Virus record (IMG/VR): IMGVR_UViG_3300005077_000489
Location: 1-64,000 of that record
DNA length: 64,000 nt
Reading direction: 5' to 3' (one strand)
Source of the DNA: a virus
Taxonomy: Duplodnaviria > Caudoviricetes
A program made the position numbers and the translations under genes. The notes below the pieces were generated by a model, which was not told the origin of the DNA, made no database searches, and saw nothing but the letters and a program-made list of their open reading frames with translations. This document shows, piece by piece, positions 16,653 to 33,063 of the stretch (position 1 is the first letter of the stretch; each line of letters begins with the position of its first letter).

Positions 16653-17153
16653 TTATTTCCCACAGCACTTTTTGTATTTTTTACCGGAGCCACAAGGGCA
16701 CGGATCATTTCTTCCTATCTTATTGTAATTGATTATAATTATGCCTTGGAGATGATCAACTTCATGTTGAATGATCCTTGCAACAATAGGGTCATTCATT
16801 TGGATTTGTCCACCAAAATTATCGGCTTCTATAGTTATCTGCTTCCATCTAGGTACATCAACTATTCTATTATCAATAGATAAGCACCCCTCGGGCTCTA
16901 CAGTAATCGGACCACGTTTGTTTACTATACGTGGGTTTACTAGGTCCATTTTGTAACCTTCGTATCTGATAATGCATACAGGTTCTGATATCCCTATTTG
17001 CGGAGCGGCTAAACCAACTCCTAAATATTCTCCACGCACTCCCATCAATGCCTCGCTTAGTGCGGTCAATATACTTTCTGGTTCCGAGGTTAAGAAACCT
17101 TTGCACGGTTTAGTTAAGACCTCGTTCGGATACTTCAATATTTCTGGTTTCAC
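16653..17153 (-). CDS. def: Peptide deformylase fused to a C-terminal SEC-C motif
   Basis: [15 protein letters not shown] and QHEVDHLQG motifs; ends [22 protein letters not shown]. Confidence 0.95.
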
Positions 17154-17168
17154 TATGAACTCCCATAT

Positions 17169-18035
17169 TTATTTTTTACCTCCCATGAACAGTTTATTAA
17201 AACAGTCACTGCACTCACACTGTGGCGTCTGTTCGGTAAATCCTGCTTCATCCAGTTTTTTATTTATCTCCACTACCAAATTTTCATATGTTATATTCCA
17301 AGTATGCTCTTTCAATGTTTGTGCTAAAAAGAACGTCAGGGCTCCGTGGAAGCGATTGTTAAAAAGAGCATCTGCTGAGTACTCGTGTTCTGCACACCCA
17401 CTTATTAAGATTGCATTACCTTGTTCCATCGTTTTTATCAAAAAGGGTTTCCTAGCGATATCCCTACTTTTTATTTTGGGTATTAAATAACTTAAGTCAT
17501 CATCTAGTTCTAATCCTCCGTTTTCAAGCATAACACTTGGTAGGGGTCTAAAGTACCTGTTTTTTGCATTATGGGGAAGGCATCCGCGGAGACCTGTACC
17601 ACTCATACAAGCATCTTCAATGACTAAAATATGTATGCTAGGATCAATATTTTTAAATTGAGCACCTAACTCATTATCTCTAATAGGGTCTCTGGGGTTG
17701 AAGTCATAATTTACAATAGTCTCATCCATGCTGTCCGCTTCGGAATCCTGAGTTTCCGAGTTGGTTGGTATACTAGTACCATGTCCTGACCAAAGGAAGC
17801 AAATTGTAGAATCAGGAGGGAGGTCAGAAACTAACCAATTTAGCCCCTGCTTTATATTAATTCTAGTTGCTTCATTATTGCTTAATAATTTGAACTCTGT
17901 AAAACCGTAAACTTCCTTCCATATTTTATAGGTTAATAGTTGGTCGTTGAGACAACCGTTTAAATCTCCTATGCCATTTGGGTAATCATTTACAGCCGCT
18001 GACAATAATCTCTTTACTGGTTTACTCATAATCAT
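17169..18035 (-). CDS. Metacaspase/caspase-like peptidase (C14)
   Basis: LNGCLND, WSGHG (catalytic His), DETIV..D, IEDACMSG (catalytic Cys), SGC.EHEYSAD, HGALTFFL. Confidence 0.92.
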   Translation of the reverse strand: MIMSKPVKRLLSAAVNDYPNGIGDLNGCLNDQLLTYKIWKEVYGFTEFKLLSNNEATRINIKQGLNWLVSDLPPDSTICFLWSGHGTSIPTNSETQDSEADSMDETIVNYDFNPRDPIRDNELGAQFKNIDPSIHILVIEDACMSGTGLRGCLPHNAKNRYFRPLPSVMLENGGLELDDDLSYLIPKIKSRDIARKPFLIKTMEQGNAILISGCAEHEYSADALFNNRFHGALTFFLAQTLKEHTWNITYENLVVEINKKLDEAGFTEQTPQCECSDCFNKLFMGGKK

Positions 18036-18399: not shown

Positions 18400-18615
18400 T
18401 TAAGTTACCTCAATGTTGTTAGGTGGTTGTTCAGAGGCTGTATTATCAAACACTCTGATTTCTTGAAGTTTGCTGGAGAGATCTTCATCTACTTCTTCCT
18501 TAGTTTTGCCCTCTATTCTGTAACCTTTTAAGTTAAGAATTCTACCTTTCCATACTTCTTTATGTCCCTTGGTTTTTTTCTCTAATACCGGAACATAATA
18601 AGTGATGTCTTCCAC
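18400..18615 (-). CDS. HicB-like N-terminal domain protein
   Basis: beta-beta-LKG-YRIEGKTKEEVDEDL resembles the HicB L.G...G.T.EEA..N pattern; no DNA-binding domain. Confidence 0.45.
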   Translation of the reverse strand: MEDITYYVPVLEKKTKGHKEVWKGRILNLKGYRIEGKTKEEVDEDLSSKLQEIRVFDNTASEQPPNNIEVT

Positions 18616-18644
18616 AATAATAACTTTGCCTCCTTAATCCTTGT

Positions 18645-18778
18645 CTTGTCCCCCCGCAGTCCTACCTAAAGCGGAGGGTGTCCTTGTCGGGTGCACGAAT
18701 GCCCTTCGGATAATTTGCCCGCAGCGACCCTACGTCCCTTCCGAACAGCGGGCATTGTTTAATAGGTCGCCCCGCCCA
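18645..18778 (-). ncRNA. Candidate structured RNA / cis-regulatory leader
   Basis: GC-rich intergenic stretch with several complementary blocks, including crossing (pseudoknot) pairs; see findings. Confidence 0.45.
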
Positions 18779-18979
18779 TTATGTACTAGTAAATAGCATA
18801 GTTAATTCTTCTCTCTAAAAAAATCTAGTTCTTTTTCTATCACAAAGGTACAAGCGGAAGACAACCTAGTTAGGTAATCTGTACGCTTTAATGCCTTTAA
18901 AACTGTTCCGGAATCTTCCGCTCTAGAATTTAAGAACTCTTCAATATTATCAATTTCTCCAGTAATAGTTATCATAAAA

Positions 18980-24968: not shown

Positions 24969-25050
24969 GGTTTGTGGATGGTGTAACGTAGGCTACATCG
25001 CTCGGCGTGTAACGGCGAGAGTATTCGGTTCGAGCCCGTGCCACAAACCC
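24969..25050 (+). tRNA. Degenerate tRNA-like element; anticodon ambiguous (GTG His or GTA Tyr)
   Basis: GGTTTGTGG/CCACAAACC acceptor pairing, D stem GTGT/ACAT, T loop GGTTCGAGCCC; imperfect anticodon arm; CCA not encoded. Confidence 0.55.
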
Positions 25051-31558: not shown

Positions 31559-32032
31559 ATGATAATAATGGTATATTGGGGTGACGACGAACAATCAGAA
31601 AAAGCACGTAGAGCCGAGCGTCTTAAAAAGAAGAAGCAGGGCGAAACTTTTATAGAACCTCCGGTGTCGCAACTTAATGACACAGAAATGATGGAACTTT
31701 TGAGGAAACAATCTGAACAACTTGGGCAGTTACAAGATTTTCTAATTTTACAGCAAAAGGTGCTGAAAGAATTGAAAGAAGAGAGTAAGAAAACTAAGGA
31801 AGTACATATTATAGAAAAAGTAATTGCTTCTGAAGATGCCCAGATTACGATAGCAGAAAATAAGAAACTTATTTTACCCGAGTTGAATGAGGATTTGGGC
31901 TCAGACCTAATTGATAAGTCAGGTATTGAAGTTAGCGGAGGGGAAATAGGTCATAATAAATCAGATGGTCTTAATATATCTGACCGTATAAAAAGATTAA
32001 AGGAATTGAAAGATAAGAATGGAGGAAAATAA
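31559..32032 (+). CDS. Coiled-coil protein directly upstream of the actin-like gene
   Basis: Heptad-rich, charged 157-aa ORF; TAATG coupling to the next gene. Confidence 0.65.
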   Translation: MIIMVYWGDDEQSEKARRAERLKKKKQGETFIEPPVSQLNDTEMMELLRKQSEQLGQLQDFLILQQKVLKELKEESKKTKEVHIIEKVIASEDAQITIAENKKLILPELNEDLGSDLIDKSGIEVSGGEIGHNKSDGLNISDRIKRLKELKDKNGGK

Positions 32033-33063
32033 TGTCGGAAGTATTTTTACCAAATAAAGGTGTAGACATAGGTACATCATATATTGTTGTTGCCAAGCAG
32101 AAGGATGACGGTAATGTCTCTTTCGTGTCTGAAAGAGATGCTTTTTTTACTATAGAGCCCAAGACCGCACAGCAGGCTAAGCTAATAGAGAATATGTTAA
32201 TAAAACGTGGTGCATTTACTTTAAAATCAGATGGTAAATTTTACGTTGTCGGTCAGTGTGCTATCGATTTGGCTAATGAGCGTAATTCTGAGGTATCTAG
32301 ACCACTAAAACGTGGGGTACTGACAGCAGATAATATTGATAGTTTCGGAATGTTGGCTGTAGTTATCGAGGCTCTAGTTGGTAGAGCAACTGTTGATGGG
32401 GAGACTTGCACATATTGTTATCCTGCAGACCCTGTGGATGCTACCTACAATGTGATTTATCACAAGAATAGATTGAATGAAATTTTTAAAGATTTAGGAT
32501 ATAGCCCTATAAGCGTTCTGGAAAGTGAGGCATTAGCTTACTCGGAATTGTTAGAAGATGAATTGACCGGTATAACTATCAGTTGTGGTGCAGGCATGTT
32601 TAATACCACAGTGTCTTATTTAGGAGAGTCCATAGACTCTTTTTCTATTTCGCGGGGAGGAGATTGGATTGATTCCATGGTCGCTAGAAACTTTAATTTA
32701 CCGGAATCGGTTATACAAGCCGAGAAAGAAGATGGTTTAGATTTGCTAATAAATTATGATAAAGGTTCCTTATCAGGTAGAATCAAGAAGAATTTAATAG
32801 ACTTTTATGAGGAATTAATAAATTATTATGTGGCTGTGCTTTCAGCCAAACTTAAAAATATAGAAAATTTACCTAAGTTTAAAAATCCTCTAAATGTTGT
32901 TATCTCTGGTGGTACTTCTTTAGCCACTGGTTTTATCGATAAGTTTATAGTAGCTATGAATAATAATACTTTTCCGTTCGTGATAGGGGAGGTAAGGCAC
33001 GCTGAATCACCTTTAACTTCAGTGGCTAATGGTTGTTTAATCTATAGCCAGTTGGAGTCGTAA
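32032..33063 (+). CDS. Actin-like ATPase (Mad28/MamK/MreB-related)
   Basis: Phosphate-1 GVDIGTS, connect-1 LESEALAYSEL, phosphate-2 ISCGAG, GGDWID, adenosine VISGGTS, connect-2 SVANGCL. Confidence 0.88.
   Translation: MSEVFLPNKGVDIGTSYIVVAKQKDDGNVSFVSERDAFFTIEPKTAQQAKLIENMLIKRGAFTLKSDGKFYVVGQCAIDLANERNSEVSRPLKRGVLTADNIDSFGMLAVVIEALVGRATVDGETCTYCYPADPVDATYNVIYHKNRLNEIFKDLGYSPISVLESEALAYSELLEDELTGITISCGAGMFNTTVSYLGESIDSFSISRGGDWIDSMVARNFNLPESVIQAEKEDGLDLLINYDKGSLSGRIKKNLIDFYEELINYYVAVLSAKLKNIENLPKFKNPLNVVISGGTSLATGFIDKFIVAMNNNTFPFVIGEVRHAESPLTSVANGCLIYSQLES

Follow-up and report, generated by a model that had tools for sequence, protein, structure and literature searches.

Seven related jumbo phages carry, at the same position and always 5′ of a small HicB-fold gene, a pseudoknotted RNA whose middle portion probably base-pairs with host 23S rRNA at loop 70 and helix 71. 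The window analysed here is a stretch of 64,000 nt, bases 1–64000 of a contig from an uncultured virus (211,229 bp, 38% G+C, 86% complete). The RNA element occupies positions 18645–18777 on the minus strand (133 nt), within a 186-nt gap (18616–18801) between a 68-aa ORF and a 71-aa ORF. The gap is a GC island, with 62% G+C in its core vs. 38% in the genome. An initial annotation of the window had proposed a novel non-coding RNA, switch or ribozyme in this gap and did not mention complementarity to 23S rRNA. The non-coding RNA stood up to comparison with homologs, the switch and an HDV ribozyme did not, and other ribozyme or riboswitch readings are left as minor rivals.

We compared seven copies of the element (the window, L170, L172, L174, L186, L187, and L188), six of them independent. 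The homologs were reached through a conserved 296-aa gene 3 kb away, through the terminase, which led to two near-complete genomes, and through the small ORF, which added one more contig. They are 47–59% identical, with one pair at 88%, and 133–169 nt long, and each copy has a stop codon on one side and a homolog of the small ORF on the other. The same gap occurs in six further syntenic contigs beyond the seven sequences compared. The element is single-copy wherever a whole genome could be checked; a second occurrence in G004 of the 9-mer described below is without the structure. Exact-pattern scans of viral, metagenome, and genome collections, with one restrictive pattern for the bacterial scan, returned chance matches only.

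The fold is built on two crossing helices. Because MAFFT misaligned them, pairs were counted on motif-anchored positions, without a covariance model or R-scape. By this tally over seven related copies, P1 (18770–18765 with 18729–18724) has 42 canonical pairs out of 42 and compensatory changes at four of its six positions, and P2 (18753–18748 with 18722–18717), which crosses P1, also has 42 out of 42, with C-G/U-A exchanges at three of six positions and U·G pairs in two homologs. Since U·G pairs are present and A·C pairs absent, the RNA strand is the gene-coding strand. The 3′ strands of P1 and P2 are separated by 0–2 nt, and the two helices probably stack. They correspond to the GCGACC/GGTCGC and TGCCCGC/GCGGGCA (18754–18748/18722–18716) pairings of the initial annotation. 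All the helices that it named are present on the minus strand after a shift of +1 in each coordinate, and its pseudoknot is confirmed by covariation of both crossing helices in the seven homologs.

P1 and P2 are joined by an A/U-rich linker, L1 (18754–18764, minus strand; 8–14 nt in homologs), and loop L2 contains the conserved motif GGWWGGGW (18735–18742, minus strand). The GGW of L2 probably pairs with a conserved WCC at 18710–18708 to form P3; both G-C pairs are invariant and the third pair is A-U or U-A in six of the seven homologs. In the window P3 is lengthened to 6 bp (18745–18740 with 18710–18705), which is the TTCGGA/TCCGAA pairing reported earlier. A candidate second pseudoknot, between the GGG of L2 and the CC of the core 9-mer, would consist of invariant pairs only. 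Several copies have additional hairpins inserted 3′ of P2. The 3′ hairpin P6 (18678–18650, 8–11 bp), already recognised as a hairpin preceding the RBS (18635–18629), is kept in all homologs while its sequence is free to vary. After it comes a conserved AAG but no U-tract, which means that P6 is not an intrinsic terminator; a terminator scan did not call it and found none between the element and the small ORF.

A descriptor of two crossing perfect 6-bp helices had one site in the 211-kb genome, the element itself, compared with 0–1 (mean 0.2) in shuffled genomes, and it matched 7 of 20,000 shuffles of the gap. Nested MFE folding of the element was unremarkable (z −0.05), as expected for a pseudoknot. 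There was no Rfam match over the element at E up to 10 (four homologs), and every reading frame of the transcribed strand is interrupted within the element in all seven homologs. The homologs are related (six independent), so the statistics drawn from them overstate independence. With covariation in seven homologs and no Rfam match, the earlier claim of a novel conserved pseudoknotted non-coding RNA holds, and we are confident that this is a real new RNA family.

The switch was proposed on the basis of mutually exclusive pairings, and these were not retained in the homologs. The alternative helix between AATGCCC and GGGCATT (the latter at 18704–18698) has 7 bp in this genome only, with 4–5 bp of unrelated pairs in the others, and no conserved pairing hides the RBS. 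A riboswitch that works through a conserved alternative structure at an RBS or terminator is disfavoured by the same unconserved helix, the lack of a terminator and the position of the RBS outside the conserved structure. The GCA-UUCG-UGC hairpin in the annotation is not conserved either; its bases form the arm complementary to 23S 1963–1972 (see below). An HDV-like self-cleaving ribozyme with an enlarged L3 is scarcely credible. Taken alone, the window does offer a P1 of 7 bp that opens with a G·U pair, a second helix of 7 bp preceded by CGAA, and a loop resembling L3. However, the first P1 position is G·U in two homologs, G·A in four, and U-A in one, neither CGAA nor the second helix is conserved, the covarying helix follows P1 directly, and there was no match to RF00094 or RF02682. 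HDV-like and theta ribozymes of phages (PMC10879173, PMC13635239) are similar to the element in being small nested pseudoknots in phage intergenic regions, but here the helix order and catalytic elements that HDV requires are not conserved.

Other known RNAs were rejected as well. A resemblance to the c-di-AMP riboswitch gave no match to the RF00379 covariance model. In comparisons by eye with SRP helix 8, twister-sister, pistol, RNase P, c-di-GMP-II, and fluoride riboswitches, the motifs were not conserved or the helix order differed. A retron or DRT ncRNA was discarded in the absence of a linked reverse transcriptase: PF00078 was not found in the genome (86% complete) or adjoining any homolog of the RNA. 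The element is not a type III toxin-antitoxin RNA, being single-copy and without a terminator, with a downstream protein of ∼60–75 aa that is HicB/dsRBD-like rather than ToxN/CptN/TenpN.

The middle of the RNA contains two segments complementary to 23S rRNA. The reference was E. coli rrlB with E. coli numbering, which may not be the rRNA of the phage host. Arm 1 (18681–18692, minus strand; core 18690–18682) is complementary to 23S 1940–1951, in loop 70 and the 5′ strand of helix 71. Its near-invariant core 9-mer, CCGACAAGG, is the exact complement of 23S 1941–1949 and is identical in six of seven RNAs, L188 having one extra A. The arm 1 match is 12 nt and perfect in the window, 9–12 nt within 1939–1951 in all seven homologs, and the longest or joint-longest match to 23S in every one of them. 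The 9-mer has one site in E. coli rRNA (chance for a random 9-mer, 0.017). Its center, GACAA, is predicted to be unpaired; internal partners reach at most 4–6 bp and none is conserved. The element fits a proposed class of antisense RNAs to 23S rRNA in having a complement, conserved and predicted to be exposed, of a unique rRNA site. Across 16 bacterial genomes representing at least seven phyla, the 23S target hardly varies (identical in ten further genomes from Proteobacteria, an acidobacterium, and an actinomycete; 2–4 base differences in five other phyla), which would explain why the core is invariant and does not covary.

Arm 2 (18692–18701, minus strand) complements 23S 1963–1972 with 10 perfect nt in the window, and 6–9 nt within 1954–1974 are complementary in the homologs. 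When the segment 5′ of the core was scored blind against 720 windows of 23S rRNA, the best was 1952–1975 (z ∼6.5), with a score sum of 53; the windows as a whole gave 28.4 ± 3.8, and none outside the region exceeded 39. The five best windows all overlap 23S 1945–1984. An 11–12-nt match to rRNA alone arises by chance in genomes of such size; for both arms to fall on adjacent rRNA segments the joint chance is ∼1e-4 (0.017 × ∼0.007), a figure to be read with the relatedness of the homologs in mind. The two arms abut in the window, which leaves 23S 1952–1962 looped out, and the length of looped-out target varies from ∼2 to 12 nt between homologs. L174 follows the complement of 23S 1941–1974 almost throughout, with small deletions. 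In L172 (7047–7060, minus strand) 23S 1929–1936 is complemented by the 8 nt that directly precede the core, an alternative second arm. A second, shorter complement of 23S 1940–1947 is found at 18638–18645 (minus strand) in the window and in L186 only.

The net gain in cofolding energy was −18 to −25 kcal/mol in six of seven copies, exceeding all 141 control windows; for L172 it was −13 kcal/mol and did not beat the best control window. L174 and L188 fit the U1967 variant of three phyla one base better, a post hoc observation that may hint at host-linked covariation. Taken together, the complementarity makes it probable that the RNA binds 23S rRNA. It is doubtful that the rRNA match is a coincidence and that the conserved bases form the pocket of a self-contained riboswitch, a self-cleaving ribozyme, or a protein-binding leader similar to the T4 gene 32 pseudoknot. 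The invariant G-runs, the A-rich linker, and the 5′ leader position are typical of such RNAs, and the adjacent dsRBD-like protein could autoregulate; the conserved G-rich L2 and A-rich L1 are not explained by rRNA pairing, and the L2 motif has no complement in E. coli 16S or 23S rRNA. Such a coincidence is difficult to reconcile with the low joint chance of the two arms, with the lack of a conserved alternative fold, and with the recurrence of the same 23S site in unrelated phages.

This recurrence was seen when 50,697 phage records were searched by blastn, the query being the complement of 23S 1936–1976. Besides rRNA contaminants, weak matches (E 0.2–8 each) were obtained in about nine phage groups; for six of these the majority of records have the match outside annotated genes, and for three it falls within a gene. 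Four non-coding lineages were inspected: Jilinvirus (Arya, ECO1230-10), Pantoea AH01, Pseudomonas phiPMW, and Rhodothermus RM378 (complements at L288:1201–1240, L289:901–934, L290:401–417, L291:401–422, and L292:401–423). In all four, 14–17 perfect bases complement 23S 1937–1959, the antisense lies on the strand of the upstream genes, and the complement is shortly 5′ of a terminator-like hairpin. Arya and AH01 have ∼22 identical bases in common at the complement. Further matches were to HeidiAbel Bas97, ECOO78, Alux-21, PT1, KA2-1, and TS33. Each match alone is within chance; the weight comes from their common placement and orientation. The cultured-phage sites are without the P1/P2 pseudoknot and are analogues, not family members. 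We lean toward the view that phages have evolved, several times, small RNAs that pair with 23S at loop 70 and helix 71 and thereby trap, shield, or re-route large subunits; the present element would be a pseudoknotted member, possibly forming an RNP with the adjacent HicB/dsRBD-fold protein.

In the 70S ribosome, intersubunit bridge B3 is made by helix 71, which is buried there. With its target at the subunit interface, the RNA should bind free or immature 50S subunits. We propose that a compact 5′ pseudoknot scaffold (P1, P2, and probably P3) and the 3′ hairpin flank a mostly single-stranded middle that would base-pair with host 23S rRNA. The exposed core would nucleate on loop 70 and the 5′ strand of helix 71 (1939–1951), and arm 2 would then take 23S 1954–1974, prising helix 71 open. 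Loading of the RNA would be onto 50S subunits that are free or not yet mature; helices 69 and 71, among the last elements to fold in such subunits, were found unfolded in late 50S assembly intermediates (PMC9638911). A bound 50S would be kept from maturing or from joining 30S, and the likely benefit to the phage would be host takeover or control of the 50S pool. MazF-mt6 cuts loop 70 in mature 50S at 30% of the free-RNA rate (PMC7180214), which indicates that loop 70 can be reached there. That the loop-out varies in length speaks for a clamp and against a site-specific guide or splint. As a counterpoint, blocked 50S subunits would hurt phage translation too. We rate the odds of such an antisense clamp, acting on 50S subunits that are free or immature, at about even; binding, subunit state, and outcome are all inferred.

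The ORF 3′ of the RNA in all seven homologs encodes a small protein (71 aa in the window, 18400–18615, minus strand, GTG start; 55–75 aa across homologs, with mostly GTG or TTG starts). Its structural model is beta-beta-beta-alpha (pLDDT 85), with VIA Z scores of 5.4 to HicB-N and 5.5 to dsRBD, a common arrangement. Pfam UPF0150 was matched at E 0.07, below the cut-off, and Atlas HicB-like clusters at 0.90–0.91. The protein ends after the helix and has no C-terminal DNA-binding domain, no hicA/HicA was called among its neighbours, and the family is confined to contigs of this phage lineage where context was checked. From its modelled fold, the protein may be a partner of the RNA or an orphan antitoxin. 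The latter would suit another reading, in which the RNA, together with a HicB-fold orphan antitoxin, acts in counter-defence over loop 70/helix 71, either as a shield against host ribonuclease toxins or as a splint holding cut ends for RNA ligase. Arm 1 overlaps the loop-70 sites of MazF-mt3/mt6 in part (PMC7180214), and the downstream protein has the HicB-like fold without a hicA neighbour. We nevertheless judge this reading unlikely: the looped-out target length varies (∼2–12 nt), a poor fit to a fixed repair geometry, just 0–2 nt pair 5′ of 1941, and the pairing would itself unfold helix 71.

A promoter-like element precedes the RNA (18778–18805, minus strand), with a −35-like hexamer at 18805–18800, a 16-nt spacer, and a −10-like hexamer at 18783–18778. 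It overlaps the stop codon of the upstream 68-aa ORF, and the predicted RNA start is at a G-run at ∼18773–18771. In a scan it matched at 9 of 12 positions; six such sites were found vs. 2.3 expected, which is weak alone. The identical hexamer pair at identical spacing precedes all seven homologs, even where the upstream gene differs, and the motif is rare elsewhere in two genomes. It is therefore not a general phage promoter, and the RNA is presumably transcribed from a promoter of its own.

The position of the RNA also suits a cis-acting leader that tethers its own mRNA to 50S in a TURBS- or CITE-like manner, or senses unassembled 23S rRNA, and thereby controls the weakly started small ORF and its operon (a caspase-like protease and a deformylase-SEC-C protein). 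The RNA is always directly 5′ of the same ORF, ending 0–16 nt before its RBS (Shine-Dalgarno at 18629–18635, minus strand; outside the conserved structure) with no terminator between, and the ORF mostly has a non-AUG start. We see only a slim chance for it, since there is no conserved anti-RBS pairing and the cultured-phage analogues are found ahead of terminators, in free-standing RNAs, or at 3′ ends, a placement that points to a trans-acting RNA. A trans-acting ribozyme or guide is less probable again. It would use the pseudoknot and G-rich L2 as a catalytic or protein-loading domain, delivered by the arms to 23S near helix 71, and the compact double pseudoknot, the invariant unpaired bases, and the two substrate-like arms would suit it. 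Against it, the RNA matches no ribozyme family and has no conserved CUGA (C/D), ACA/AUA follows the 3′ hairpin in only four of the seven, and no nuclease or modification enzyme is linked in all homologs. The arm spacing varies, unlike that of a site-specific guide; a C/D or H/ACA guide RNA was rejected on this spacing and on its unconserved boxes.

The surrounding gene run encodes a DNA methyltransferase, a caspase-like protease, and a deformylase with a SEC-C motif. The deformylase-SEC-C fusion (16653–18035, minus strand) lies beside the caspase-like protease gene just downstream of the RNA and small ORF, and this arrangement is lineage-wide. Several relatives have free-standing LAGLIDADG-like genes between the small ORF and the caspase gene or right after the caspase gene. 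In a more distant relative (L178:339–474), two small ORFs abut before the caspase gene and the RNA is seemingly absent at that position. Elsewhere in the window, a volactin-family actin homolog (32032–33063, plus strand; PF25216, E 7e-60) is kept in relatives. A phage tmRNA (25060–25566, plus strand) is unusually long at ∼500 nt; it scored 47.1 bits, equal to the gathering score, and was missed by ARAGORN. Directly 5′ of it is a tRNA-like element (24969–25049, plus strand) with a 9-bp terminal stem, a T-arm-like GGTTCGA, and a possible GUA anticodon loop, which neither ARAGORN nor Rfam called.

A literature search, with subscription journals mostly outside its reach, found no description of such an RNA and, within the same scope, no bacterial or phage small RNA described as functioning by pairing with 23S rRNA. 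If the proposed pairing is true, it would add a new layer of phage control over host translation, provide a natural probe of late 50S assembly, in which helices 69–71 fold last, and give a lead for antisense antibacterials against a highly conserved site. The RNA is short, E. coli has the identical target, and the cultured E. coli phages HeidiAbel Bas97 and ECO1230-10 (Jilinvirus) carry a complement of the same site. Even without the rRNA link, the element is a new covariation-supported RNA family.

Caliciviral TURBS, rRNA-pairing translation enhancers, and snoRNA chaperones also act by base-pairing with rRNA; they are eukaryotic, and TURBS pairs with small-subunit rRNA. The phage RNA differs from snoRNA chaperones in having no C/D or H/ACA architecture. 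CopA and RNA I are loop-presenting antisense RNAs that carry their seed on a stable fold. In RydC, similarly, a stable pseudoknot fold displays a single-stranded seed that pairs in trans (PMC4337610). The targets of these three are mRNAs or plasmid primers and not rRNA, and the phage RNA is without a U-tract terminator. The nearest examples on the 50S subunit in our comparison are group I introns. The Tetrahymena intron placed in E. coli 23S rRNA joins 50S subunits and slows growth (Nikolcheva and Woodson, 1997, as reviewed in PMC3984707), and Cbu.L1917 and Cbu.L1951 of Coxiella are group I introns with 50S association and slowed growth (cited in PMC4990558). The introns resemble the phage element as structured RNAs tied to 23S domain IV and located on 50S, and the L1951 insertion site falls inside the target of the phage RNA (PMC4990558). 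They differ in being large, self-splicing, and located in the host's own rRNA gene, with 50S binding as a side effect, whereas the phage RNA is encoded by a 133–169-nt phage gene, has no group I core (no Rfam match), and carries two antisense arms.
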